Sequence record: NC_054892.1
Direction: 5' to 3' (one strand)
From: Escherichia phage vB_EcoS_PHB17
Length of the DNA: 48,939 nt
Position 1 is the first letter of the stretch. Each line of letters begins with the position of its first letter. Shown piece by piece: positions 8,898 through 48,792 of this stretch. The position numbers and the translations under genes are program-made. Under the pieces are notes generated by a model. It did not search any database. It had not been told where the DNA came from and was given only the letters and a program-made list of their open reading frames with translations.

Positions 8898-8923
8898 TAA
8901 CCCCGCGTTTGCGGGGTTTTTTA
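8898..8923 (+). terminator. rho-independent terminator
   Basis: CCCCGC-GTTT-GCGGGG stem followed by TTTTTT. Confidence 0.8.
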
Positions 8924-8965
8924 TTGCCTGTTATAATCGGACTCCAACAAAGGAGGGCAATTATC

Positions 8966-9487
8966 ATGGCTAAAAACGTCGAACCTGCTGTAAAGGCATT
9001 GAATTTTAAAGAGCTATACAATAAGAAATATGGCGACATTGCGCGATTGAGCAACGCGCACACACTTACGCCGGAGCAAGTTTTTGATCTGGCGGTTCGC
9101 TATTTTGAATGGGCGGAAAAAAATCACATTGAAGCGGCGGAAACTGCATCCTTTCAGGGCGATGTATACGAATCAAAAATCCATAAGCCGCGAATCTTTA
9201 CCCTTAACGGCTTGCGCCTGTTTTGCGGATTCTCTGAGGCCGTTACTCTGAAATGGCGCAGGGAGCCAGGATTCAGCGAAGTGATGGAATTCATCGACAC
9301 GGTAATCAATGAGCAGAAATTCCAGCTTGCGGCGAATAACCTTGTAAACGCCTCGTTTATCGCCAAAGATATTGGCGTTGATAAGCCAGCAAGCATTAAC
9401 GTTGAAGCAAACGCAAACGCCAGCGTTGACGCAGTGACGGCGGAAGAAGTAAAAGACGCGGTGCGGGATATCTTAGGAGAAATCTGA
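8966..9487 (+). CDS. putative terminase small subunit (173 aa)
   Basis: ATG 8966 after AAGGAGG; sits immediately upstream of terminase large subunit; assigned by position only. Confidence 0.5.
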   Translation: MAKNVEPAVKALNFKELYNKKYGDIARLSNAHTLTPEQVFDLAVRYFEWAEKNHIEAAETASFQGDVYESKIHKPRIFTLNGLRLFCGFSEAVTLKWRREPGFSEVMEFIDTVINEQKFQLAANNLVNASFIAKDIGVDKPASINVEANANASVDAVTAEEVKDAVRDILGEI

Positions 9488-9489
9488 TC

Positions 9490-11058
9490 ATGCTTATTTG
9501 GGAAGATTTGACAGCGGCGCAGAAACGCGCCATTAAAGAAATGAGCGAGCTTTCATTTGAAAAGATGATCCGCATATGGTTTCAACTCCTGCAAGGCCAG
9601 AAGTTTTTAAGCAACTGGCATTTCAGCTACCTATGCAGTGAGGTAGAGAAAATCATTTCCGGCGAATCGCAAAACGTGATCTTTAACATCACGCCAGGTT
9701 CGGGTAAAACGGAAATCTTTTCGATCCATATGTCGCCGTATGCGTCAATCAAAAGCAAAAAGGTGCGCAACCTTAATCTTTCGTTTAGTGATGGCCTGGT
9801 GCAACAGAACAGCAACAGGATCAAGGAGATTGTTGGATCTCCAGAGTGGCAAGAGTTATGGCCTGGCAAGCTGGCGAAAGCCAGCGCCAAAGATCTGATT
9901 GTGCAGGACGAAAACGGGAAAGTTAAGTTGCAGGTGAATTCCCGTTCAATTGGTGGACAGGTTACGGGCTTGCGTGGCGGCTATATGGATGATGGTTTTA
10001 CGGGGATGTTGGTACTTGACGATCCAGACAAACCAGATGATATGTTTTCGAAGGTGCGCCGTGAAGCAATGCAAATGCGCCTAAAAAACACCGTGCGATC
10101 ACGTCGAATGAAAGACACAACGCCAATCGTAATGGTTCAGCAGCGGCTACACGTCAATGATTCTACTTACTTCATGACAAGCGGCGGCATGGGCGGCATT
10201 CAGTTTAAAGTTGTGAGCATTCCGGCGCTAGTTACGAAAGAATACCGCGAAACGCTTCCTGAGTGGTTAATTCCTGAATTTGATCGTGATGTGCTGACAA
10301 GCGAGCCTGTTTATATTGACGGCGTGGCGCATTACTCTTTTTGGCCTGCAAAGGAGAGCGCAAAAGACCTTTTAGCGCTACGCGAGGCCGACCCATACAC
10401 TTTTGCATCACAGTATCAGCAGCATCCTATAGCGTTAGGCGGCAACGTGTTTAAAGTGGATTGGTTCCAGTATTACGGCGACGGCGAGAAATGCACGCTA
10501 CCAAAACCGGAACGCTTTGAGTACACATTTATTACGGCGGATACAGCGCAAAAAGTAGGCGAGCTAAACGACTACACTGTTTTCTGTTATTGGGGCATGT
10601 ACAAAAACCGCGTTTACTTCATTGATGGCGTGCGCGGCAAATGGGAAGCGCCAGACCTTGAAACAAACTTTGTGGCTTTCGTTAATCAGTGCTGGAAGCG
10701 CAACAAAGAATGCGGCTCCTTGCGTAGAATCCACGTCGAGGATAAAGCGAGCGGAACGGGCTTGATTCAGGGGGCAAAGAAAAAGATCCCTATTGATATA
10801 AATCCCGTTCAGCGCAACACGGACAAAGTAACACGCGCGATGGATGCAGCACCAGTTATGAGGGCGGGGCGCGTTGCATTGCCTGAAAACCATCCAATGC
10901 TTGCGGAGCTACTCGCAGAGGTGGCTGCGTTCACGTTCGATGATTCTCATCCAAACGACGATATCGTTGATAACATCGTTGATGCGGTCAACGTGGAAAT
11001 GAACCTCGCAGACGATCCGGTTGCACGCATGAAAAAACTGGCTGGATTGAAGAAATAG
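9490..11058 (+). CDS. terminase large subunit (522 aa)
   Basis: ATPase P-loop TPGSGKTE in N-terminal half, acidic nuclease-type C-terminal half; first of packaging/head genes. Confidence 0.85.
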   Translation: MLIWEDLTAAQKRAIKEMSELSFEKMIRIWFQLLQGQKFLSNWHFSYLCSEVEKIISGESQNVIFNITPGSGKTEIFSIHMSPYASIKSKKVRNLNLSFSDGLVQQNSNRIKEIVGSPEWQELWPGKLAKASAKDLIVQDENGKVKLQVNSRSIGGQVTGLRGGYMDDGFTGMLVLDDPDKPDDMFSKVRREAMQMRLKNTVRSRRMKDTTPIVMVQQRLHVNDSTYFMTSGGMGGIQFKVVSIPALVTKEYRETLPEWLIPEFDRDVLTSEPVYIDGVAHYSFWPAKESAKDLLALREADPYTFASQYQQHPIALGGNVFKVDWFQYYGDGEKCTLPKPERFEYTFITADTAQKVGELNDYTVFCYWGMYKNRVYFIDGVRGKWEAPDLETNFVAFVNQCWKRNKECGSLRRIHVEDKASGTGLIQGAKKKIPIDINPVQRNTDKVTRAMDAAPVMRAGRVALPENHPMLAELLAEVAAFTFDDSHPNDDIVDNIVDAVNVEMNLADDPVARMKKLAGLKK

Positions 11059-15336: not shown

Positions 15337-15354
15337 CACAAAAACCTGTTGCAC

Positions 15355-15373
15355 GTTTAACAAAAAGTGCTAT
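15355..15373 (-). promoter_or_regulatory. conserved motif copy, reverse orientation
   Basis: TTAACAAAAAGTGCTAT on plus strand between paralog 2 and major capsid genes. Confidence 0.4.
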
Positions 15374-19050: not shown

Positions 19051-19089
19051 ATTGCTGTAGAATCATCCTACCAAAACAAACCAAATCGC

Positions 19090-19108
19090 TTTTAACAAAA
19101 AGTGCTAT
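19090..19108 (-). promoter_or_regulatory. conserved motif copy, reverse orientation
   Basis: TTTTAACAAAAAGTGCTAT on plus strand between major tail terminator and chaperone gene. Confidence 0.4.
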
Positions 19109-29955: not shown

Positions 29956-30013
29956 GTTATCGCCTCCTATCTGTTAATCAATGCCGTAACTATAACACCA
30001 AACGGCGCGGCGG

Positions 30014-30031
30014 TTTAGCAAAAAGTGCTAT
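30014..30031 (-). promoter_or_regulatory. conserved motif copy upstream of minus-strand operon
   Basis: Reverse complement ATAGCACTTTTTGCTAAA; TATAGT about 22 nt downstream on minus strand, then AGGAGG and ATG. Confidence 0.5.
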
Positions 30032-32285: not shown

Positions 32286-32705
32286 ATGCCGCATATTATT
32301 ACTGGCGAGTTACGCAAAGAGCCTTACACAAAAGAGGGGCAAAACAATTCCGGCGCATACAAAATGTACATCGTCGAACTATCAGAAAGCATCAAAGACC
32401 GCCAGACAAACGAGCGAGTTTATACCAATTACAGCGCCACATTCTTTGCATCAAGCGATGCAATGCGCGGTTGGTACGATGAGGCGTTACAGGCCGGAAA
32501 GGTGATTAGCGTTTCATCTGAGGCGCTCAAAATCAATCAGCGTGAGCATAACGGGCAAACCTATATCACGTTACAGATGGAGCAACCGCGTTTAGTGTTC
32601 AGTCAGCGCGGAGCCGGATCGCCGCATAAATCAGGCCAACAACAAAGCCAGCCGCAGCGCCAGCCGTCACCACAACAGAATTTCGACGACGATATTCCTT
32701 TCTGA
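32286..32705 (+). CDS. ssb: single-stranded DNA-binding protein (139 aa)
   Basis: Q/P-rich tail ending DDDIPF. Confidence 0.8.
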   Translation: MPHIITGELRKEPYTKEGQNNSGAYKMYIVELSESIKDRQTNERVYTNYSATFFASSDAMRGWYDEALQAGKVISVSSEALKINQREHNGQTYITLQMEQPRLVFSQRGAGSPHKSGQQQSQPQRQPSPQQNFDDDIPF

Positions 32706-32715
32706 TTGGCAGGAA

Positions 32716-32748
32716 AAAGAAAACCCCGCATTGCGGGGTTTTTTATTA
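32716..32748. terminator. bidirectional rho-independent terminator
   Basis: AAAACCCCGC-ATT-GCGGGGTTTTTT between convergent SSB and tail fiber genes. Confidence 0.8.
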
Positions 32749-34899
32749 CTTATTGACAAGTTGAGAAACAATGGCTTTTAACTCCTCAACTTCTTTCTCA
32801 AGGTTTGCGATCCTTTCCTTGTTCGCTTCGTCACGCGCACGCAATGCCTTAATCGCTGCAAGACCATCCAAAAGCATTGGCGTCTGGTCAAGGTGATAAT
32901 AATCTCCGACTTTCCAGACGTATTCTTTATCGATCTTCATAATCTGCTGACTAATGACGCCGCGACGGGCGCTACGATCAGGCGCGTCATCCTTGAATCT
33001 GAACAGCTTAAACTCCATTCGATTCACGTTATCTAACGCACCCTCAAGGTTAAGGTTACCTTTAATGTCCTTCAGGGTCTCATCTGATACAGCCGATGTT
33101 GTCACCTTAACCCAATCTCGCCACGTTGTAGACAGATCATCGCCAGCGCGTGAGTAAAGTTCGTTTGTGACCTTGTTCCAACAAAGCTGCCCGGTATAGT
33201 TACCAGAAACGCGATCAGGGCCTCGACCGAAAGAAGTTAAGATCCCGAAACCGCTAAAAGGAATTCCGTCGGCGGTTGTTGTTGCGTTAGTAAAAGTCCT
33301 AAACTCCGTATTTCTTCGGGAGTTGGCGTTCAACTGACCAGCGGCGCTAGTGAAGTAAGCAACGTTAACCATCATTTCACCGCTAATCTGAGCAAACGGA
33401 ATTCTTATTTGCCCGGCTTTGTTGCCATCCCTTCTTCTTGCAATAAGAGATGGAACAGCACCAGACTGCGGGCCGAGTTCGAACATCGCCCTTGAGAATA
33501 AATCGGTCTCCGCCCTATCGGTATTATCAATAATAAAGGCGGGATATCCACCATGTTCAGCAACAAAATCACCTCCCTTCGCCCTGACGTTGCCATCATT
33601 AATATTAAGATCGCCGCCGCCATAAATAAGAGTCCCGGCGCTAATAGTCATCTTTCCTTTAGCGATCGTCGAACTTCCTTCCGCTACGTAGATCCTTGCG
33701 TCATAGTCATTCCCAGTCCCAGATGAATGGAAGTCGATAAAAGCAGGCGTTTTTGTCGTCACGCTTCCAAGTTCAACTCCAGTATCGCCAGTGTTTTGGC
33801 TTCCTACCTGAAGGCCGCCAGTTAAAATATATTGTGAACCAGTCCAGCTATTGGAAGTATTTAATAACGGGATAGTGCCGCCAGACGTTCCGATATTATA
33901 AGTTGATGCGCTGCCAAGACCTAAATTTGTGCGTGACAATGCCTTATCAGCAACGTCTGAAAGGTTATTCTCTTTCTGCATCAACTTGCTTGTTTCGAAA
34001 GAATCCGCCAAGCGTTGAGCTCGATCAGCTTCGTTTTTCGCAGTAGTCGCAGAACCAGCGGCGGCAGTTGCAGAACCAGCGGCGGCAGTCTTAGACGCAT
34101 CAGCGGATTGCGCAGATTGCGCGGCCTGATTCTTTGACGTGTTTGCGGCTGTTTCGCTCGCCTTTGCTTTTGTCTCGCTGGTCTTAGAGTTAGTCTCGCT
34201 TGTCTTTGCGGCTGTTGCAGATGCGGCGGCGGCTGTCTGGCTTGCCCTTGCTGCATTCTCTGACGCTTTCGAGTTTGTTTCACTGGTTTTCGCGGCTGTC
34301 TGGCTTGCCTTTGCTGCATTCTCTGACGCTTTGGAGTTTGTTTCACTGGTCTTTGCGGCGGCTTGTGATGCAGCGGCGGCGATCTGGCTTGCGCTTGCTG
34401 AATCCTGGCTAACCTTCGAGGCGTCCTGGCTTTTCTTCGCTTCCGTTTGGCTTGTCTTTGCTGCAACCTCTGACGCTTTGGCGTTGGTGGCGGCTGTTTC
34501 AGCTTTGGCGGCATTTTGCTTTGTTGATTCGTCCAGCGCTTCCAGTTTTTTCCAGTCGAACGTTTTAAGGAATTCAACAAATTCCTCATACATCGTTTCT
34601 TTCCCCTGGTAGTATCGCAGCGTTTCAGCAACATCTTGTGCCAGGCCATCAACGGTGATTGAGTCATGCAGCAGGATCACATAATCAGTGCGATCAATAA
34701 CAGCACCTCCCGTAGCGGTTGCACGGATTGACGTGTCGCTAATCACTTCTGAAATTGTTGCGTATGTTGCTGGGCTTGTTGCAAACACGATTGTTGCACC
34801 TGAGCGAATCAGGGTTAACTGATCGCGCCACGATGTGTTATAGCCTGTAATGTAGCCTTGAGCGTCCATTGACGCTTGCCCCTTACGATAAATAGACAT
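32746..34899 (-). CDS. tail fiber protein with C-terminal intramolecular chaperone domain (717 aa)
   Basis: 21-aa Ala/Lys/Thr/Ser repeats, Gly-rich middle, C-terminal self-cleaving chaperone-like domain; AGGAG RBS. Confidence 0.75.
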   Translation of the reverse strand: MSIYRKGQASMDAQGYITGYNTSWRDQLTLIRSGATIVFATSPATYATISEVISDTSIRATATGGAVIDRTDYVILLHDSITVDGLAQDVAETLRYYQGKETMYEEFVEFLKTFDWKKLEALDESTKQNAAKAETAATNAKASEVAAKTSQTEAKKSQDASKVSQDSASASQIAAAASQAAAKTSETNSKASENAAKASQTAAKTSETNSKASENAARASQTAAAASATAAKTSETNSKTSETKAKASETAANTSKNQAAQSAQSADASKTAAAGSATAAAGSATTAKNEADRAQRLADSFETSKLMQKENNLSDVADKALSRTNLGLGSASTYNIGTSGGTIPLLNTSNSWTGSQYILTGGLQVGSQNTGDTGVELGSVTTKTPAFIDFHSSGTGNDYDARIYVAEGSSTIAKGKMTISAGTLIYGGGDLNINDGNVRAKGGDFVAEHGGYPAFIIDNTDRAETDLFSRAMFELGPQSGAVPSLIARRRDGNKAGQIRIPFAQISGEMMVNVAYFTSAAGQLNANSRRNTEFRTFTNATTTADGIPFSGFGILTSFGRGPDRVSGNYTGQLCWNKVTNELYSRAGDDLSTTWRDWVKVTTSAVSDETLKDIKGNLNLEGALDNVNRMEFKLFRFKDDAPDRSARRGVISQQIMKIDKEYVWKVGDYYHLDQTPMLLDGLAAIKALRARDEANKERIANLEKEVEELKAIVSQLVNK
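34140..34360. repeat. 63-bp tandem repeats (about 3.5 copies) inside tail fiber gene
   Basis: Near-identical units starting at 34231 and 34294 with diverged flanking copies; encode 21-aa repeat AAKTSETNSKASENAAKASQT. Confidence 0.75.
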
Positions 34900-35002: not shown

Positions 35003-35950
35003 CTAAAGGAAAGTTTCAGGCTTATACAGCTTTCTTTCTATCCCTTGTTTGAAATTATCGTTAATCGGGATCATCACGTCAAGTTCTCTTTCTTCGGCGG
35101 CAATCAACACATCCTGATCGGTAGACTTGCACACTACGCGCATTTTTCTGTTTCCTTTATACCTGTACGCCACGATCTCAAGATTGTACTGTGAGAAACA
35201 ACACCAAACCTCTTGCCCCGTCGAAAGGTGGATATGTTGAGCATCAACCCAATCAACGCACAAATAGATCGTGTTTTCAGTTTTGCCAGTCACCGCAACT
35301 GAGCCGCGCGTGTAATCCTTCGCATAAAAACTTTGCTTGCCGTTCTCATCAATGAAAAGGATGTTACACATTTCATCATCAAGTTCATCGTCATGCACCA
35401 GGTAGCACGGTATGGCGTGAATAAGCGATTCTCCGCCATTCTCAAGCGTTTTAACGCCTACGGAATACATTTCATCACCAGGAAGTGCTATCCCTTCAAA
35501 AACGCTTAGAGGCGTCTTACTGCGTAATTCCGTGCGCTCCATTACAGAGGCGCAATTCTCATGCGGAGCCTGAGATCCGAAAGTGTAACCGGATGCACGG
35601 CTTGCACGCTTATTGGCCTTTATCCGGTACTCTTGCGGAACCTTTCCGAGAAAGCGACCCAGGATGTTAATTACTTCGCTGTATGGCTCTCCTGTTAGCT
35701 TCATCATCCAGCCCACGCCGGAATCGTTACCACAGCCGTTGCACACCGCGCCGCCGTCGCCGTCCTGACTCAATTTGTCAGTCCACCTAAAACGGTCTTT
35801 ACCTCCGCAATTAGGGCAGGGCTGGTGCTTTTTGTTGAAAACATCCGAGCTTAAACCGCATATTGACTGCAACGCATCGCGCCACAACCCTTTCATATAC
35901 GGTAAAACCTCCTCTTTCTGAAACATCATGTTTTCGTTAATGTCGCTCAT
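35003..35950 (-). CDS. DNA primase-like protein with zinc ribbon (315 aa)
   Basis: CPNCGGKDRFRW ... CNGCGN zinc-ribbon motif near N-terminus. Confidence 0.6.
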   Translation of the reverse strand: MSDINENMMFQKEEVLPYMKGLWRDALQSICGLSSDVFNKKHQPCPNCGGKDRFRWTDKLSQDGDGGAVCNGCGNDSGVGWMMKLTGEPYSEVINILGRFLGKVPQEYRIKANKRASRASGYTFGSQAPHENCASVMERTELRSKTPLSVFEGIALPGDEMYSVGVKTLENGGESLIHAIPCYLVHDDELDDEMCNILFIDENGKQSFYAKDYTRGSVAVTGKTENTIYLCVDWVDAQHIHLSTGQEVWCCFSQYNLEIVAYRYKGNRKMRVVCKSTDQDVLIAAEERELDVMIPINDNFKQGIERKLYKPETFL

Positions 35951-36463: not shown

Positions 36464-36483
36464 ATAGCACTTTTTGTTAAAAT
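36464..36483 (+). promoter_or_regulatory. conserved motif copy ATAGCACTTTTTGTTAAAAT
   Basis: In divergent region between HTH gene and helicase; TGTAGTATAGC downstream. Confidence 0.5.
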
Positions 36484-36539: not shown

Positions 36540-38540
36540 ATGGCAATACCAAACATTAAAAAACAATTATCAGCGTTAGGCGATGAGGTTATAAAGGCTA
36601 TTCAAGATCGCTTTACCGTTGGCGAAATTAGCCCTTACCCGTATCAGTGCGTTGCGTATTCCGAGATCGCAAAGCGCATGAAAAATTACGAGCATCCTTT
36701 CTTTGTCAAGGCGTCCGTATCTGCTGGTAAAACAATCATCTTTGCGATGGTTGCGGCGCAGTGTAAAAAAATGGGCTTGAAAATGATGGTTTTGGCTCGC
36801 CAGGCTGAAATTGTGGATCAGGATTCAGAGGAGATCACAAATTTTGGTGTTCCAAACTCCATCTATTGCGCCGGACTCAACACGAAAAGCGCGTATTTTC
36901 CAATTGTCGTGGGTTCGGAGGGAACCGTTGCAAACGGCTTGTTTAAAGCGTTAGGTGACTATGTTCCGCATGTAATCGGTATTGATGAATGTCACCAGGT
37001 GGATTGGGAAGATTTAGCCGATTCGATAGAGAACGAGGAAACTTTCGAGCAAATGACCACAAAGAAAGGCGTTCGCGTTCTGAATGGTGACGGCTCCCAG
37101 GTTTTCAACAAAGACGGCGAACCAATGGAGGGAACCGGACGCAGCCAATACACAATAATCATTCGTGAAATGCAGCGCCGTTGCAAAGAGGCTTACGGGC
37201 ATGAATTGCGCATATTCGGAATGACTGGATCGGAATTTCGCGGCGTCGTTCCAATCCTGGTTGAAGATAAAAAACAAAAAGGTTTCTGGCGTGAGCAGGT
37301 AACGAACATTGATACAAATTACCTGATCGAGTTCGGTTCGGTTGTTCCCACTAACTTTGGCAACGTTGATGGTTTGGGTTATGACCTTTCAGAGTTCACG
37401 GCGTCCAGTGAGGATGGCGTTGCAGACTTTGATCAGAAAACTTTGCGCAAGATGGAAGAGAAGATCCACAATGACGCAACAATGACGCAAAAAATAATGT
37501 CACGCGTGCATGAGATCTGCAAAGACCGCAACGGCGTTTTAGTAACTTGTGCAGGTGAGCGCCATTGCAAAGAAGCGGCGGCGGCTTTGCCACCTGGTAC
37601 ACCGTACCGCATCATCACTGGTAAGACTGGCGAGAAACAGCGTAAAGAGTGGTTGCGCGAGGCATACGATGGAAAAGTAAAATACATCTTCCAGGTTATG
37701 GCCTTAACAACTGGCGTTAACGTTCCGTTTTGGGATACGTCTGTAATCCTTCGCAAAATCGGATCGCTTACCTTGCTGATTCAGCTTTTAGGGCGCGGTA
37801 TGCGACTGTTGAAGAAATGGCACATTGAACAAGGTTTTGTTAAAAACGATCACCTTGTTTTAGATTTTGCTGGCTGCATGGATGAGTTAGGGCAACTTTA
37901 CTTCGATCCGATACTTGAGCAAGCGCAATTCCAGCGCCGCCACGACAACGGAAAAGATCCTAAATTCTGCCCGATTTGCGGAACGGAAAATTCATTCTAT
38001 GCACGCCGTTGCATAAGGGTTGATGAAAACGGAAATCGTTGTGAGCACTTTTGGAAATTCAGAGTTTGTGAGGATCAGATTGACCCAAGAACAAAGAAAG
38101 TGATTGTTAAAGGTTGCGGAACCAAAAACGACGTTGTAGCGCGAATTTGCCGCCATTGTGACGTATCACTAATTGATCCAAACGAGAAATTGAGCGGAAA
38201 GCACTACACAAAAAACGACTGGTGCAACGTGAAATCGTTCCGTGTTGATATGACGAAAAACCAGAAAGGGATCGTATTCTGCTATGAGCTTGAGGCGCAC
38301 GGAGAAACGTTCAAAGCATACGAGCGCTTTTTCCCTGAGTCTGACGCACAGATCTGTAAAACGCTTTGGCGTCAAACAGCGCTTAAACACATTCCAGATC
38401 GCAGAATCGCGGGGATGGTTGCCAGCTATCGCAATGCGCGTAAAATCATGAGCATGGCACATCACATTTTACCGCCTGTTAAGGTTACGCACCGCAAAAA
38501 CGCAAAAGGCGAGGATATAATTTATCATCGGGAGTTCTAA
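36540..38540 (+). CDS. SF2 ATP-dependent helicase (666 aa)
   Basis: Walker A SVSAGKT, DECH box, C-terminal Cys clusters. Confidence 0.8.
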   Translation: MAIPNIKKQLSALGDEVIKAIQDRFTVGEISPYPYQCVAYSEIAKRMKNYEHPFFVKASVSAGKTIIFAMVAAQCKKMGLKMMVLARQAEIVDQDSEEITNFGVPNSIYCAGLNTKSAYFPIVVGSEGTVANGLFKALGDYVPHVIGIDECHQVDWEDLADSIENEETFEQMTTKKGVRVLNGDGSQVFNKDGEPMEGTGRSQYTIIIREMQRRCKEAYGHELRIFGMTGSEFRGVVPILVEDKKQKGFWREQVTNIDTNYLIEFGSVVPTNFGNVDGLGYDLSEFTASSEDGVADFDQKTLRKMEEKIHNDATMTQKIMSRVHEICKDRNGVLVTCAGERHCKEAAAALPPGTPYRIITGKTGEKQRKEWLREAYDGKVKYIFQVMALTTGVNVPFWDTSVILRKIGSLTLLIQLLGRGMRLLKKWHIEQGFVKNDHLVLDFAGCMDELGQLYFDPILEQAQFQRRHDNGKDPKFCPICGTENSFYARRCIRVDENGNRCEHFWKFRVCEDQIDPRTKKVIVKGCGTKNDVVARICRHCDVSLIDPNEKLSGKHYTKNDWCNVKSFRVDMTKNQKGIVFCYELEAHGETFKAYERFFPESDAQICKTLWRQTALKHIPDRRIAGMVASYRNARKIMSMAHHILPPVKVTHRKNAKGEDIIYHREF

Positions 38541-38542
38541 TT

Positions 38543-38962
38543 ATGGTTACTGACAAGGGCGATTATCTGGAGTATTACGAGCGCGATCCGAGCGACACGC
38601 GAAAGGAAGATTCTCACCAGGTTGATTGTGTGGCGTGGTTGCGCCACTTTTATCCCTGGCTTTTATTCTGGCATACAGTAAACGAGGGGCAAAAGACGAT
38701 CACCAGCGCATTGAGGGATGAGCAAGCAGGATTGAGAAAGGGCGTTAGTGATTTCGTTATCCTGATTGGTATTAACAGCCGTTACCCATTCGCGGCTATT
38801 GAACTAAAGCGCGTAAACAAGTCTGGTAAAGGCAAGGCGTCACCAGTCAGCGACGAACAAAAGGGATTTTTACGCGATGTTCGCCAGCGTGGAGGATTCG
38901 CGGCGGTGGCTTACGGATTCGAGCAATTCAAATTAGCGATTGCAGATCTTTTGCATAAATAG
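38543..38962 (+). CDS. VRR-NUC domain nuclease (139 aa)
   Basis: DFVIL ... ELK PD-(D/E)xK-type motif; GGGAG RBS. Confidence 0.6.
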   Translation: MVTDKGDYLEYYERDPSDTRKEDSHQVDCVAWLRHFYPWLLFWHTVNEGQKTITSALRDEQAGLRKGVSDFVILIGINSRYPFAAIELKRVNKSGKGKASPVSDEQKGFLRDVRQRGGFAAVAYGFEQFKLAIADLLHK

Positions 38963-40125: not shown

Positions 40126-40145
40126 ATAGCACTAATTGCTAAAAC
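40126..40145 (+). promoter_or_regulatory. conserved motif copy ATAGCACTAATTGCTAAAAC
   Basis: Directly after TAA stop; hairpin CCCGC..GCGGG. Confidence 0.5.
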
Positions 40146-40711: not shown

Positions 40712-41830
40712 ATGGCTTTACAAAAAATTACCGATGAGCAGTTTATTGAAGCACGCAAAGAAGGAAAAACCTACAAGCAGATCGCGGAGGAGTTCGGATT
40801 GAATGTTCGCAGCGTTGAGCGCCGCGCGGCTCGCCTGGCTCGCTCCGGTGAAACTGAAATTAAAGGCGTTCCAGGTTATGCGGTTGTGCGCGAATCTGTA
40901 CTAACCCGCGCCAATGGTGAGGAAGTCATGCGTTGGACTATCACCAACAAAGATAAGGAACAATTAGAGGCGCTGATGCAAGCCGCTATGGAGGCTTTCG
41001 CGGAGGAAGTGCCACGACTGGAAGCGCAACCGGAAACGCGTGTTGATTACTCTGAAAGCCTGGCGCTATATCCAATCTTTGATATGCACTTAGGGGCAAT
41101 GGCGCACAAGCATGAATGCGGCGAAAATTGGGATACAGCAACAGCGGAACGAGTGATGAATAATTTCTTTGATTACTCAATCGCCCATGCGCCAAATAGT
41201 GAAAAAGCGGTGCTCCTGATTGGTGGCGATATGCTCCACAGTGACGGCCTGGAAGCGGTGACACCTGCAAGCGGTCACGTTCTGGATCAGGATAGCCGGT
41301 ACGCAAAACTTGTTTATGTTGCAATCCGAGCGACGCGCCGCGCAATCAGTATTATGCTTACAAAGCATAAAGATGTTGAAGTGCAGATCATTGAAGGTAA
41401 TCACGACCAATCAGGAATGATCTGGCTTCGTGCAGCAATGGCGGCTGCATATGAAAACGAGCCTCGCGTAAATGTTGATGTTTCGCCGCGCGTAGTGCAT
41501 CACACGCAATATGGTAAAACCTTCCTCGCATATCATCACGGGCACACAGTGCGCAAGCCGGAAACGCTGTTAATGATGTGTGCGGCAGACTGGCGGGAGG
41601 ATTTCGGAAAATCTAAAATGATGTATGCGCATGTAGGGCATTATCATCACCAGACTGTAACCGAAACCAGTTTAGGTATCGTTGAGGTGCATAGCACTAT
41701 GGCAGCAAAAGACGCTTACGCGGCGCGTGGTGGCTGGCGTTCTCGCCGTCGAGCGGCGGTTATTATTTACGACAAAGAGCATGGCGAAATTGGGCGCTTT
41801 ATGCACTATCCTGAAATGATGGAGAAATAA
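40712..41830 (+). CDS. HTH domain fused to calcineurin-like metallophosphoesterase (372 aa)
   Basis: N-terminal HTH (KTYKQIAEEFGLNVRSVERR); phosphoesterase motifs DMHLG, GGDMLHSD, EGNHD, HHGH. Confidence 0.65.
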   Translation: MALQKITDEQFIEARKEGKTYKQIAEEFGLNVRSVERRAARLARSGETEIKGVPGYAVVRESVLTRANGEEVMRWTITNKDKEQLEALMQAAMEAFAEEVPRLEAQPETRVDYSESLALYPIFDMHLGAMAHKHECGENWDTATAERVMNNFFDYSIAHAPNSEKAVLLIGGDMLHSDGLEAVTPASGHVLDQDSRYAKLVYVAIRATRRAISIMLTKHKDVEVQIIEGNHDQSGMIWLRAAMAAAYENEPRVNVDVSPRVVHHTQYGKTFLAYHHGHTVRKPETLLMMCAADWREDFGKSKMMYAHVGHYHHQTVTETSLGIVEVHSTMAAKDAYAARGGWRSRRRAAVIIYDKEHGEIGRFMHYPEMMEK

Positions 41831-42841: not shown

Positions 42842-43224
42842 AACGATTAGCGGCAATCATGATGGTTATGGCTCTTTCCGGTTGTTCAGCGTCAAGCGCT
42901 CTGACTGGTTTGATTGGCAGTAAGCCGGAAGTAACAGCCCAAGCCGGAGCGGAAAACATAAAGCAAACCGTGGGCGTGACAGCAAAGCAGGACACCAGCA
43001 GCAAGCAGGAAACCAGCTTTGAAAAGTCTAACGTTGGAAAGGTTGACACCTCAAACAAAAAGAAGGTGAGCGCCTCCAGCATTCAAGCTGAAACAATCAC
43101 GGCGGAAAGGATAGAGATCAGGAATACAGATAGCGGGTTAGATTGGAAGGTTAGCGCGTTATTCTTTGCTGTAATTTCTATCGTGCTGTTTCTCATCGGA
43201 TACAAAAGCAAGAAAGGAGCCTAA
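42838..43224 (+). CDS. unimolecular spanin (128 aa)
   Basis: Lipobox ALSGC at N-terminus plus C-terminal transmembrane helix, the arrangement known from phage T1. Confidence 0.8.
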
Positions 43225-43238
43225 CGGCTCCTTTTTTA
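43213..43238. terminator. rho-independent terminator at end of lysis cassette
   Basis: AGGAGCC-TAAC-GGCTCCT plus T6; spanin stop codon sits in the loop. Confidence 0.7.
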
Positions 43239-43436
43239 TTCCTCCATCAATCTGACGTTAACCAAAACCACGCCGTCAACATCACATAGATTATGCTCTT
43301 TGTCTCCAAACGCTTTCATATCGGCACGCAGAACGGTTAACAGGGCATAAATCAAATCATCATGCGAGATTGAATTTACGGCGCAATGCTTCAATATCTT
43401 GTCGATTAGTTTTTGAGCAGAATAATTCTTCATCAC
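43236..43436 (-). CDS. hypothetical protein (66 aa)
   Basis: ORF overlapping 3' end of next ORF by 77 nt in another frame. Confidence 0.3.
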   Translation of the reverse strand: MMKNYSAQKLIDKILKHCAVNSISHDDLIYALLTVLRADMKAFGDKEHNLCDVDGVVLVNVRLMEE

Positions 43437-43752
43437 TTAGTTCATCCATATGAAACAGATCGTAAATGTATTTGTTTCTCTCACCTTCCAGGTTGTACAA
43501 CTCAAACCGGAAAGGGCGCTTGTGCGAGCCGTAGCACGTCACCACGCCTTTATCTAATCCAAGATAGCCCAACGTACACATTCGAGGAATAAACTCAAGA
43601 GAAACGCTTGAGGCGAATTTTCGAGGCGTCATATTGGCGGCTCTTGCGAGACGCTCACATTCCCTATGCTGAAACACAAACTTTGCTAAATGCTGGCGGT
43701 TAAACCAGCTATAACTTTCACAAAATTTATACAGATCTAAGAGGAACATCAT
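43360..43752 (-). CDS. hypothetical protein (130 aa)
   Basis: ORF whose ATG directly follows stop of upstream gene. Confidence 0.45.
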   Translation of the reverse strand: MMFLLDLYKFCESYSWFNRQHLAKFVFQHRECERLARAANMTPRKFASSVSLEFIPRMCTLGYLGLDKGVVTCYGSHKRPFRFELYNLEGERNKYIYDLFHMDELSDEELFCSKTNRQDIEALRRKFNLA

Positions 43753-43756
43753 TCAA

Positions 43757-45337
43757 TCACCCCAGCAATGATGGATTCACAAACACGCGCCCATTGATAA
43801 CGCAAACATAATTTCGTTCTTCCAGCATTGGGAGTAAGTTTTCCTCAATGCGTTTCATGATTCCGGCTTGCCCCAGGAACGGCTTAACCTTGCGTGCGCT
43901 TTCGTAAATTGCGCGAACCGTTAAGATCCCTTTGTTTGCTTTACCGTGGCGAGTGATGATATCAATCAGCTTTGACATTTCCGCATCGTCACCAGCGTGA
44001 CCGGAGGCATTCGCCGCGCTAATGTAAGTTTTGCTCAATTCCTGGAACATGATCAAAGCCTCTTGCATCGTTTCAACTTCAATTTCACGCGCCTTTTGTG
44101 GTGAACCGTTCTCATTGAACCAGTTACGGATTACATGCAGAACGGATGCAATGCGGATCACTTGCTTATCCATTTTACCCAGCGCACCGCGTAGCATCGT
44201 GTGTGAGTATTTTCCGCCGTCTGCTAAATCCGGCTCCATTTCCTGACGTGCGCGATTTAGGCAACGCATAGCCGCTTTGCTGATCTTCAATGAAACATCC
44301 ATTTCCGACATGATGTTATGAACAAGTTGGTAATATTGCGCTTTCAGTGTCGGATCAACAGGTTCAAACGTTGAATCACCTTCATCATCAATAAAGGTTC
44401 GACGGCCTAAAAATGATTCCTCGCGAACAAGTAAGAAACGCTCACTAACACCTATACCGCGTGAACCAGCCTCCATGATACCATTTATTGTTTCATCCTG
44501 AGCGATCACACTCATGCAACCAAGCGCCTTAAAACTCATGTTGTTTTCAGCGTTTGCACGCGCGATAGAAACGTGTCCAGCATCCCAGGCTTTAAGAACC
44601 AACTCACTGTTAGTTTTTCGCTCGCTGTTGGCGTAGGTCAAACCCAAAAGGCTGTTAATACTCGTTGCCTCATCCGAGATTACCGCAAAGTTTCCTTGAC
44701 GGTTGTTAATCTTTGCCAAACCTTCTGGCGTGGTATCAGACACCGGAAACACAACGTCGCACAGCTTTTGCAACTTCTCCTCTAACTCCTCTTTTTCTTC
44801 GTAAAGAGCGGCCATATCAGAACCGGATCGCTCGCTTTTCATTTCTTTAGCAAGGCCAGCCAGTTTAGCCAGAATCTTTTTGCGCTCTTTCTTGCGTTGT
44901 TCGTTGATTCGCTCAACTTCGCAAACCATCGGAGCAATCGCCAGACTATTGATCGCAGATTTACCAGTTGACGGCGGCTGGCTCGTTACAACGTAAAGCG
45001 CGGTTGGCTGGTCGGTTCCATGATAATCAACAGTAAAGCGTCCGAGCATTGCAGCAGAAATGCAGCCTACAAAGTGCATATAGGCAGACGAAACAGGGAA
45101 TTGCACAGAGTTTGCAATGTTGCGTGACAGCTTGCCAACAACATCAACGTCATTCCCCAAAGAGATCACAGGGTAGCGGTCATTGCCTGAGTTAACATCT
45201 TGAACATCGCTCCAGAAACTTGATGATTGGCGGTAGCCGTTTGCGTTGATTGCCACACGCAGAGGTGAAACGCCCAGGCTTTCAGCGGTATCAATAATGT
45301 CTTTCGGTGATAAGCGTTTTTGTTCAAAATCGTACAT
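43757..45337 (-). CDS. P-loop NTPase of unknown function (527 aa)
   Basis: Walker A QPPSTGKS and Walker B AVISDEAT; start MYDFEQ with AAAGGAG RBS. Confidence 0.6.
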   Translation of the reverse strand: MYDFEQKRLSPKDIIDTAESLGVSPLRVAINANGYRQSSSFWSDVQDVNSGNDRYPVISLGNDVDVVGKLSRNIANSVQFPVSSAYMHFVGCISAAMLGRFTVDYHGTDQPTALYVVTSQPPSTGKSAINSLAIAPMVCEVERINEQRKKERKKILAKLAGLAKEMKSERSGSDMAALYEEKEELEEKLQKLCDVVFPVSDTTPEGLAKINNRQGNFAVISDEATSINSLLGLTYANSERKTNSELVLKAWDAGHVSIARANAENNMSFKALGCMSVIAQDETINGIMEAGSRGIGVSERFLLVREESFLGRRTFIDDEGDSTFEPVDPTLKAQYYQLVHNIMSEMDVSLKISKAAMRCLNRARQEMEPDLADGGKYSHTMLRGALGKMDKQVIRIASVLHVIRNWFNENGSPQKAREIEVETMQEALIMFQELSKTYISAANASGHAGDDAEMSKLIDIITRHGKANKGILTVRAIYESARKVKPFLGQAGIMKRIEENLLPMLEERNYVCVINGRVFVNPSLLG

Positions 45338-45391
45338 CTGAAATTCTCCTTTCTTGTTGCCGCTAAGTATAACGGCAACAATACTACCCTG

Positions 45392-45410
45392 TTTTAACAA
45401 AAAGTGCTAT
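45392..45410 (-). promoter_or_regulatory. conserved motif copy, minus strand
   Basis: Overlaps TAG stop of 45407-45652; hairpin GTTGCCG..CGGCAAC with TATACT, then AAAGGAG and ATG 45337. Confidence 0.5.
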
Positions 45411-45652
45411 TTGATGATCTCAACTTTGGCTAATAACTTGCTTCCGTCATGGCTCCAGCACTCCAGCTTTTCGCGGTCAAATGTCATTGATCGGTGGAAG
45501 CTATGACCAATCAGCAGATGATCCGGCTTTTCCCTGATTCGATAAACAGTATCACCAACAAGCAGGGATGAGATCACACTATAGGTCACTTTATAAGCAT
45601 GTTTGCGCATCACTTCTGGAATGTGGCGCTTGTAATCTACACCCTTAATCAT
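45407..45652 (-). CDS. hypothetical protein (81 aa)
   Basis: ORF; stop TAG lies inside motif copy. Confidence 0.45.
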   Translation of the reverse strand: MIKGVDYKRHIPEVMRKHAYKVTYSVISSLLVGDTVYRIREKPDHLLIGHSFHRSMTFDREKLECWSHDGSKLLAKVEIIK

Positions 45653-46011
45653 GAATATTTCGCCTCAAACAGATAGACACCAGCGGCAGAAAATCCGACT
45701 TCCTCGCGGTAAAGCGTCCAGCGGTCGCCGTCCTCATCGAACACGTAACCAGCCACGCCGCCAAGCACGCGCCCTTGTTCGATCTGGTAGCGCTTTCCGG
45801 CCTTGAAAGTTTTCTTAACAGGGTTGCTATGGTCTACCCACTTGCAAAGAATGGTTTTGGTTTTGATTTCGCGGTAATCGCGAATGTCTGCATTTTTCCA
45901 CCTTGAGCCTTTCGCCATTTCGCGAACCTGGAATTGCGACTCAAAAGAAAGATCAGTAACGTGACGGGAGTGCATGAGTTTGTTGTCAGAGTTACGAATT
46001 ACTTTAGCCAT
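45649..46011 (-). CDS. hypothetical protein (120 aa)
   Basis: ORF with AAGGAG RBS. Confidence 0.5.
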   Translation of the reverse strand: MAKVIRNSDNKLMHSRHVTDLSFESQFQVREMAKGSRWKNADIRDYREIKTKTILCKWVDHSNPVKKTFKAGKRYQIEQGRVLGGVAGYVFDEDGDRWTLYREEVGFSAAGVYLFEAKYS

Positions 46012-46115: not shown

Positions 46116-46874
46116 TTACGTATCACGGTTAGGAATCCTGACACTTCGATCAAGCCCCAGCGTTGCCCCTCTCCAGATGCAATCCTTGCCGCTCCCGTCT
46201 ATGTTTGTATTATGCCCGCGCGGAGTCAGTGATCGCAATTGCTTTGTCCTGGCAGACTTGCCGCCGAGGTATTTCCACGCCCAAAAGAAACCGATATTGA
46301 TCGGGCCTGGTACTTTTTCCGGCATGACAAAACCGTTGCCACACCATATGCAAGTTTTCTTTGTGTACCCGTCGAAAGCTGGCATTTTCGGATGGTACGG
46401 CGTTTCATCTTCTCGCATGTATCCGCCATACTCAAACGGGTTGAAATAATGGTTCGGCTTTCTCCATTTGGTTGACAACAGCCCTACAGGGTTTTCGACC
46501 ATCCAGGGGCAACCATAGCGATTGCCTAACGCCTCCACCAGCTTTGCATTGTTCACGGCTAAATCAACGGCGTCCTCGTTGCGATCATGCTTGCGCCCGC
46601 TGTGAGCAAGTTCGGTGCATGACGGGAAAGCGAAAATAATATCAGGCTTTCCGATAATGAGTTGCTGATTCCCTGATAGGTAAGCAACAGCACCAGCAGG
46701 ATCAAACGAATCATCAATCCAGGCGTTTACATAGTGCAGGTTTTCATGTTGCATCTTGATTTCATATTCGCCGTGGTCGGCTGAATCAGCGTTGAAACAG
46801 AAAACAGTGTGACCAGCTTTAGCCCAATCCAAGCCCATAATGCCGGAGCCGTCAAACAGTGACCAGATAACCAT
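46116..46874 (-). CDS. DNA cytosine-C5 methyltransferase-like protein (252 aa)
   Basis: Motif I-like SLFDGSGIMGLDWAKAG, motif VI-like ENPVGL, but FPSC in place of canonical PCQ. Confidence 0.5.
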   Translation of the reverse strand: MVIWSLFDGSGIMGLDWAKAGHTVFCFNADSADHGEYEIKMQHENLHYVNAWIDDSFDPAGAVAYLSGNQQLIIGKPDIIFAFPSCTELAHSGRKHDRNEDAVDLAVNNAKLVEALGNRYGCPWMVENPVGLLSTKWRKPNHYFNPFEYGGYMREDETPYHPKMPAFDGYTKKTCIWCGNGFVMPEKVPGPINIGFFWAWKYLGGKSARTKQLRSLTPRGHNTNIDGSGKDCIWRGATLGLDRSVRIPNRDT

Positions 46875-47386: not shown

Positions 47387-47442
47387 TGCTTTGTTCCTTC
47401 GTTAGTTGGTATGCGCCCATTATACAAGGAGCGAAAAACTTG

Positions 47443-47461
47443 TTTTAGCAAAAAGTGCTAT
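47443..47461 (-). promoter_or_regulatory. conserved motif copy, minus strand
   Basis: Followed on minus strand by TGTATAATG about 22 nt after TTGCTA, then RBS and ATG 47386. Confidence 0.55.
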
Positions 47462-48370: not shown

Positions 48371-48420
48371 CTCTCTGATTGGTTTCGATGGGGTTATTAT
48401 GCCAACTAACCCCGATCCTG

Positions 48421-48439
48421 TTTTAACAAAAAGTGCTGT
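48421..48439 (-). promoter_or_regulatory. conserved motif variant (ACAGCAC), minus strand
   Basis: Directly after TAA stop of 48441-48716; hairpin GGGGTTAG..AACCCC with CATAAT. Confidence 0.5.
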
Positions 48440-48716: not shown

Positions 48717-48773
48717 TTCCGTTTTCCTCAATTCTTTTCGATGAAGTAACTATACCAAATCCGATCCGATCCG

Positions 48774-48792
48774 TTTTAGCAAAAAGTGCTAT
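48774..48792 (-). promoter_or_regulatory. conserved motif copy, minus strand
   Basis: Upstream of first gene of minus early operon (ATG 48716). Confidence 0.5.

Follow-up and report, generated by a model that had tools for sequence, protein, structure and literature searches.

The minus strand of the 48,939-nt sequence of Escherichia phage vB_EcoS_PHB17 (NC_054892.1; this whole stretch is referred to as the window) encodes at positions 43757-45337 a DUF3987 protein, the orthologue of gp9 of coliphage T1, which is probably the replication-fork helicase of the phage, acting as a hexamer and possibly loading itself via its winged helix. Membership in DUF3987 and an MCM-like AAA+ fold are close to certain, and DNA helicase activity of the protein is likely. 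The best explanation of the data is an AAA+ ATPase of the MCM-like branch (helicase superfamily 6, SF6) composed of four parts. Family membership, fold, motif conservation and gene context were computed here. The gene is a core, previously annotated helicase gene of a very common phage family and as such already known; a replicative helicase function of DUF3987 proteins had already been predicted in print in 2016, leaving little discovery value.

The DUF3987 gene and its product

The Pfam profile DUF3987 (PF13148) matched residues 79-430 of the protein over profile positions 1-350 of 364, giving 144.6 bits as compared to a gathering cut-off of 27 (E 6e-42), and PHROG 2373, named "DNA helicase", was matched over the whole profile (E 1e-243). 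The DUF3987 profile was matched by all 26 aligned homologues as well. By tblastn, 916 phage records were found to contain a homologue, and in 904 of these the coverage was at least 80%; the records belong mostly to T1-like phages of Klebsiella, Escherichia, Salmonella and Shigella, and the annotations across them read helicase, DUF3987 protein or hypothetical protein. T1 gp9 (ST9, YP_003936.1) is 58% identical from end to end and carries the RefSeq name "DNA helicase", and the orthologue of phage PaulSarasin (96% identical protein) is annotated "putative helicase". Over the DUF3987 gene the nearest public genomes are those of the Tempevirinae phages W011D and PaulSarasin with 87% nucleotide identity. 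None of the NCBIfam models matched the window protein, nor did we find a Pfam match of the DnaB_C type; its structural neighbours (see below) are AAA+ proteins and not RecA-fold helicases. A first-pass annotation of the window had described the protein as an orphan without placeable motifs, a description superseded by its full-length membership in DUF3987 and PHROG 2373, its orthology to T1 gp9 and its MCM-like AAA+ fold. The same annotation had left the role open and held that the gene would be ordinary if it could be matched confidently to an established family of replication helicases; exactly such a match was obtained, and by that standard the gene is therefore ordinary.

On the minus strand, to which all coordinates of the gene and its parts refer, the open reading frame (ORF) extends from a TTG at 45400 down to the stop codon at 43757-43759. 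As a Shine-Dalgarno sequence, AGGAG (45346-45350), is located 8 nt upstream of the ATG at 45337 and as every full-length homologue (520-531 amino acids, aa) begins at the Met of this codon, the ATG and not the TTG is the supported start; transcription from the promoter-like element upstream of the gene would begin downstream of TTG 45400. The coding sequence (43757-45337) comprises 1581 nt, i.e. 527 codons with the stop counted, so that the product has 526 aa and not 527 as previously given. The frame is stop-free for 547 codons, the maximum in 20 shuffles of the window being 206 codons, which places it far beyond chance and confirms the earlier call of a real minus-strand ORF. In the comparison with PaulSarasin 87% identity at the DNA level stands against 96% at the protein level, indicating purifying selection on the gene.

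We assessed conservation in an alignment of the 26 homologues with identities down to 35%. The P-loop (Walker A motif) QPPSTGKS comprises residues 120-127 (44957-44980), with Q120, P121, P122, S123, G125, K126 and S127 being invariant, and the Walker B motif AVISDEAT comprises residues 218-225 (44663-44686), in agreement with the initial assignment as a P-loop NTPase. Within Walker B, S221 and E223 are invariant, as is F217 of the same region. At D222 (codon 44672-44674), 7 of the 26 homologues have Ala and one has Glu, and S221 and E223 are thus the conserved residues of the motif. A variable Walker B Asp next to invariant S221 and E223 is unusual for an active AAA+ motif. Full conservation was also observed for the D-x-T-P-E motif (residues 201-205), for A279 and E282 of the A-Q-D-E stretch at 279-282, where Q280 and D281 are nearly invariant, and for R383, G384, G387, K388 and D390. 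The segment GHVSIARANAENNMSFKA (residues 254-271, 44525-44578) carries the invariant R260 and forms a β-hairpin in the structural model described below, its strands (255-258 and 267-270) lying directly before strand 273-279; by analogy, it is a candidate for the pre-sensor-1 hairpin, which would face the DNA in the channel. In GVSERF (residues 296-301, 44435-44452) G296, E299 and R300 are invariant and S298 and F301 nearly so. R300, located just before strand β5 (301-305), is a candidate arginine finger and would be the positional analogue of the SRF motif of MCM proteins.

The AlphaFold2 model calculated from the homologue alignment reached a predicted local distance difference test score (pLDDT) of 87 and a predicted template modelling score (pTM) of 0.85. 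It consists of a helical N-terminal region, the ATPase core, a helical lid (about residues 346-445) and a winged helix (446-526). The N-terminal region (residues 1-78, 45104-45337), which is outside the Pfam match, contains three short helices resembling a helix-turn-helix (HTH), a loop and another helix, with A18 and W42 being invariant. Between the P-loop helix and strand β2 a charged α-helical hairpin is inserted (about residues 126-191, 44765-44962; helices 126-168 and 172-191); this insertion of ~65 residues is continuous with the P-loop helix and might serve as a collar or as a surface for partner binding. The strand following the β-hairpin (255-270) ends in VIAQDE, and GVSERF directly precedes the next strand. 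The C-terminal winged-helix domain (about residues 446-526, 43760-44002) exhibits the order H-E-H-H-E-E. When the model was searched against the PDB with Foldseek, Mcm2-7 subunits ranked top, and further structural neighbours were MCM-clade AAA+ proteins, mobile-element helicases included (Cch, ComM, the SaPI5 primase-helicase and SaPIbov1 Rep). Matches in BFVD were phage DUF3987 proteins, many of which are fused to PrimPol or Toprim primase domains. The model contains an MCM-type AAA+ core plus lid. The first-pass annotation had placed no motifs other than Walker A and B and had named structure prediction as a check; run here, this prediction gave a confident MCM-like AAA+ model.

Proposed replicative role, rival explanations and related systems

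The window is collinear with T1, gene for gene, in the order terminase, head and tail genes, RecE-like nuclease and Erf, tail fibre, primase, regulator, superfamily 2 (SF2) helicase, Dam, lysis cassette and, at the right end, a block of small genes on the minus strand. The phage protein encoded at 32286-32705 is collinear with T1 ST27 and had no Pfam match. All window ORFs of at least 500 aa are assigned, namely to terminase, tape measure, tail tip, fibre, SF2 helicase and the DUF3987 protein. We found neither a DnaB-type helicase nor any other candidate ring helicase in the window, and a DNA polymerase is neither annotated in the collinear T1 genome nor present among the assigned window ORFs of at least 500 aa. 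With DnaB-type helicase and DNA polymerase both missing from the window, the DUF3987 protein is the best candidate for the fork helicase. The former statement that replication helicase and primase are accounted for elsewhere is doubtful, as the helicase in question is a RadD-like SF2 enzyme and the primase lacks a helicase half. The SF2 helicase (36540-38540, plus strand) has ResIII and Helicase_C domains as well as a zinc-ribbon-like DUF7577 segment and matched the NCBIfam RadD model with E 1.3e-57, under the equivalog cut-off; the gene for a VRR-NUC nuclease (VRR_NUC domain, 38543-38962, plus strand) follows directly, the two together spanning 36540-38962. This combination points to a role in repair or fork processing, and the sequence suggests that the SF2 helicase is of the repair or fork-processing type rather than a ring-shaped fork helicase. 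The primase (35003-35950, minus strand) is a stand-alone zinc-ribbon DNA primase of 315 aa (Pfam Zn_Ribbon_Prim, E 8e-14). It matched positions 8-317 of the 667-position PHROG 510 only, that is, the primase half, and therefore brings no helicase of its own.

Kazlauskas et al. (2016) assigned phage DUF3987 proteins to helicase superfamily 6 as distant relatives of MCM, with an HHsearch probability of 98% for one member, and reported a C-terminal winged HTH and that AEP or DnaG primases are frequently fused to them or encoded next to them (PMC4889955). They concluded that DUF3987 proteins function as replicative helicases and counted N4 dns, which is essential for N4 replication, in the family (PMC4889955). 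The same prediction was made from primase fusions by Kazlauskas et al. in 2018 (PMC5862659). The only DUF3987 enzyme for which unwinding has been shown is AgaPH (PriCT-DUF3987, 2025), an oligomeric, ATP/dATP-dependent 5'→3' helicase that requires Walker A and Walker B and binds its cognate primase-polymerase (PMC11724360).

Gene context in distant relatives supports a role in DNA replication or recombination. In relatives at 34-37% identity the DUF3987 gene is located within, or at the head of, a block encoding primase, SF2 helicase, RecE-like nuclease, Erf or AAA_24, and SSB, the distance to the primase gene being 0.2-0.8 kb in relatives at 34-36% identity. In phage IME207 it lies 0.8 kb from the genes for primase, SF2 helicase, RecE and Erf, and the genes for SF2 helicase, RecE-like nuclease, AAA_24 protein and SSB come directly after it both in Vibrio phage D71 and in a metagenomic contig of 78 kb. 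Another contig (L008) has the gene order Dam, a 69-aa gene, DUF3987, a 75-aa gene, zinc-ribbon primase, SF2 helicase, further genes and SSB, with the primase, two genes downstream of DUF3987, being a homologue of the window primase (E 2e-11). The set of SF2 helicase, zinc-ribbon primase, DUF3987 helicase and VRR-NUC nuclease was also described for the T1-like Pantoea phage AAS23.

We infer ring assembly, helicase activity, translocation polarity, replicative role and partner proteins, and propose the following mechanism. Within the minus-strand block the DUF3987 gene would have a promoter-like cassette of its own for expression, and its product would assemble into a ring, probably a hexamer. 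ATP would be bound at the subunit interface, with K126/S127 and E223 contributed by one subunit and R300 by the adjacent one. The β-hairpin with R260 would touch the DNA within the central channel, and ATP hydrolysis would power translocation on single-stranded DNA, unwinding the phage duplex. Partners would be the separate zinc-ribbon primase (35003-35950) and the host polymerase, and the winged helix may aid self-loading on DNA or partner binding.

Several observations weigh against this proposal. The DUF3987 gene of the window is not adjacent to the primase gene but 7.8 kb away from it with the lysis cassette in between, as in T1. When the surroundings of the gene were searched for iterons or origin-like repeats, only chance-like short two-copy matches emerged, and neither biochemistry nor genetics of the window protein or of T1 gp9 was found in the literature searched. 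The polarity is uncertain, since the analogy to AgaPH would suggest 5'→3', whereas MCM proteins and prophage BcMCM, an MCM-type helicase functional in bacterial viruses, translocate 3'→5'. The phage may use the host DnaB helicase instead. Moreover, with the narrow T1-type profile the MCM relationship was not detectable by sequence: searches of the PDB with the protein and with a 26-sequence profile returned nothing meaningful, so that no DUF3987 structure was detected; Pfam MCM (PF00493) was absent at E ≤ 10 for the window protein; hhalign of this profile against the SsoMCM core, whose sequence was retrieved from the PDB with a consensus as the probe, aligned 7 P-loop columns with a probability of 0.4%; and the Smith-Waterman score against SsoMCM was reached by 60 of 1000 shuffles and is not significant.

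A Pfam scan of the 26 homologues at E ≤ 10 gave DUF3987 and noise only, PF00493 not being among the 25 families. By eye, several motifs follow each other in the same order and with similar spacing in the window protein and SsoMCM (AVISDE/AVIDE, VSIARAN/VSIAKAG, SVIAQDE/AVIAAGN and VSERFLLV/LSRFDLIF, respectively). As hhalign aligned the P-loop only and the pairwise alignment was no better than those of shuffled sequences, we infer this correspondence rather than report it as a match, and the MCM link thus rests on the predicted structure and the published HHsearch results. The OB-fold/zinc N-terminus of SsoMCM and Mcm2-7 was not seen in the window protein, where residues 1-78 form short helices only and gave no domain match; the ~65-residue hairpin after the P-loop helix is a further difference. 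The DUF3987 protein is hence MCM-like in fold and not a member of the MCM family proper.

Among the rival explanations a recombination or repair motor survives best. The protein would then be a ring helicase similar to MCM8/9 or ComM that serves branch migration or recombination-dependent replication together with the RecE-like nuclease and Erf, leaving the fork to host DnaB or the SF2 helicase. We regard this as unlikely, although the gene blocks of the distant relatives contain recombination genes: the primase shares these operons, DUF3987 is repeatedly fused to primases, and AgaPH binds its primase. In addition, replicative MCMs scored at least as high as MCM8/9 in the structural search, and the window holds no other candidate ring helicase. 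Less likely still is a replication initiator or loader, i.e. an AAA+ switch in the style of ORC, Cdc6 or DnaA that would engage an origin via the winged helix and recruit the host helicase without unwinding processively. P4 alpha (SF3), SaPI Rep and SCCmec Cch, which serve satellites and mobile elements as initiator-helicases and bind iterons beside their own genes, are of other helicase families, and no iterons were found at the window gene. The staphylococcal island helicase belongs to the DUF927 family (PMC5862659).

The first-pass annotation had considered replication, packaging and defence or counter-defence; replication is the best supported of these, and the other two are effectively excluded. 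A defence or counter-defence ATPase acting apart from replication, e.g. one similar to BrxL, is highly improbable, as the protein did not match any PADLOC defence model at E ≤ 0.01, as it is present in full length in 904 of the 916 phage records including T1, and as distant relatives are found in replication modules. A DNA-packaging ATPase is scarcely conceivable, for apart from being a large P-loop protein nothing speaks for it, the fold is AAA+/MCM and not that of a terminase, and TerS (8909-9487, GP3_package) and TerL (9490-11058, Terminase_6C) are already present, as in T1.

Extending the proposed fork-helicase function, we tentatively suggest that T1-like phages might use a hybrid replisome in which an MCM-fold (AAA+, SF6) ring helicase replaces DnaB and acts together with the zinc-ribbon primase and host polymerase III; on balance we consider this less likely than not. 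Its helicase may self-load through the winged helix, possibly aided by the product of the 130-aa gene located downstream. If the polarity is 5'→3' as in AgaPH, a helicase with an archaeal/eukaryotic-type fold would nevertheless travel on the lagging strand, as DnaB does. T1-like phages are abundant and serve both in therapy and as models, but few studies have dealt with their replication. The sole biochemical report on the DUF3987 family gave a polarity opposite to that of MCM, and there is no PDB structure with detectable sequence similarity. With T1-like phages, an MCM-fold helicase could easily be studied experimentally in E. coli, and their annotation would be improved by naming the DUF3987 protein the likely fork helicase and the SF2 enzyme a repair-type helicase.

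The closest known system is T1 itself. Orthologues of gp9 occur throughout the Drexlerviridae. In the collinear T1 genome the gp9 gene is located as in the window, just beyond the lysis cassette and on the other strand, with a gene of 130-135 aa after it. In T1 an HNH endonuclease gene abuts its 5' end, whereas the window has a 69-nt spacer with a promoter-like cassette at this position; a functional difference between gp9 and the window protein was not noted. The literature searched on T1 genetics and on defence-escape mutations in the T1-like helicase contained nothing on the DUF3987 gene. Two classical T1 genes, 1 and 2, are required for DNA synthesis, and the DUF3987 gene may be among them.

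AgaPH, compared by description only, shares with the window protein the DUF3987 ATPase domain with Walker A and B, a small C-terminal domain and a separately encoded primase. It differs in that it has an N-terminal PriCT, directly adjoins an AEP-type primase-polymerase and derives from an integrated mobile element of Seonamhaeicola, whereas the window protein has a different N-terminus, is encoded by a lytic phage and has as its presumed partner a bacterial-type zinc-ribbon primase 7.8 kb away. N4 gp43 (dns) combines the DUF3987 helicase with an AEP primase at its C-terminus, and a DNA polymerase is likewise encoded by N4. The alignment of the window profile with the N-terminal part of N4 gp43 was marginal (E 0.0035, probability 9%) and covers the segment preceding the P-loop, the P-loop, the helical insertion, a TP motif and Walker B.

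Promoter-like motif and flanking genes

The 81-aa gene upstream of the DUF3987 gene ends at 45407, resulting in a spacer of 69 nt between the two. In this spacer a copy of the family-wide 18-nt promoter-like motif, AGCACTTTTTGTTAAAAC, is located at 45391-45408 (minus strand) and ends 53 nt upstream of the ATG, which occupies positions 54-56 after the motif. It is followed by a stem-loop (45354-45381, minus strand) with the core arms GTTGCCG and CGGCAAC (minimum free energy -17.6 kcal/mol, z -5.25), the loop of which contains a -10-like TATACT (45366-45371). The arrangement of motif, stem-loop and ribosome-binding site is kept in PaulSarasin, and both PaulSarasin and SECphi27 have the motif at the corresponding site. 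The two stem arms change jointly in SECphi27, from GTTGCCG/CGGCAAC to GGGCCG/CGGCCC.

The 18-nt motif, AGCACTTTTTG(T/C)TAAAAC, occurs in 10 copies in the window, with 0.08 copies expected, and in 11 copies in T1. Three of the window copies are on the plus strand (1528-1545, 36466-36483 and 40128-40145) and seven on the minus strand (15354-15371, 19089-19106, 30012-30029, 45391-45408, 47442-47459, 48420-48437 and 48773-48790). The motif was not found in the N4, IME207 and Vibrio D71 loci, and its sequence is not mentioned in the literature searched. In 8 copies a -10-like hexamer follows the motif at 17-19 nt and a start codon is located about 50-58 nt after it, so that motif, -10-like hexamer and start codon look like a fixed expression cassette, as judged from the spacing. 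The motif would cover roughly positions -48 to -31, with its TTG(T/C)TA part being about 22 bp from the -10 element; this spacing differs from that of a canonical sigma-70 -35 element and suggests a family-specific activator-dependent promoter. The copies at 15354 and 19089 are directed into the late-gene block in antisense orientation, with counterparts at the equivalent positions of T1.

About half of the copies are followed by a strong hairpin (z -2.2 to -5.6), as exemplified by 1546-1580, 45354-45381 and 48385-48415 in the window and by 1470-1505 and 2289-2320 in T1 (L002). In some of them the stem encloses the -10-like hexamer, the arms varying from copy to copy (GGGGTT/AACCCC or GTTGCCG/CGGCAAC) and covarying between phages; at other copies the hairpin is an ordinary terminator. 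Candidate functions of the hexamer-enclosing hairpin are an operator, a cruciform or a structure of the 5' leader.

Downstream, a 130-aa gene (43360-43752, minus strand; PHROG 2794, unknown function) begins 4 nt past the DUF3987 stop codon. Its homologues are restricted to T1-like phages, with T1 ST10 at the same position, and its product is a possible accessory factor. A single-sequence AlphaFold2 model of this protein was unusable (pLDDT 40). The minus-strand block ends at a hairpin resembling an intrinsic terminator (43213-43234, minus strand); in T1 a terminator is annotated at the corresponding site.

Two genes upstream of the DUF3987 gene lies a 120-aa ORF (45649-46011, minus strand; PHROG 2684, unknown function), which is 60% identical to an ORF of the T1-like phage SECphi27, the sole one within its first 50 kb that starts with ATG and has exactly 128 aa. 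Stokar-Avihail et al. reported that an unnamed SECphi27 "128aa protein of unknown function" triggers Mokosh type I, making this SECphi27 ORF a candidate for the trigger. The 252-aa ORF at 46116-46874 (minus strand) corresponds in position to a gene annotated as Dcm-like C5 cytosine methyltransferase in PaulSarasin, yet had no Pfam match at E ≤ 0.01.

SF2 helicase region and further observations

In distant relatives a homologous SF2 helicase is encoded beside or near the DUF3987 protein; its gene is followed by one of 131-141 aa in IME207 and L008. The region of SF2 helicase and VRR-NUC nuclease looks like a conserved module for repair or fork processing. Further along the plus strand, at 40712-41830, a 372-aa protein is encoded in which an N-terminal HTH (Sigma70_r4-like) is fused to PHROG 704, "DNA repair exonuclease"; it is conserved as ST16 in T1. 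Finally, the tail-fibre gene (32746-34899, minus strand) contains nested tandem repeats with periods of 21, 63 and 147 nt at 34045-34485.

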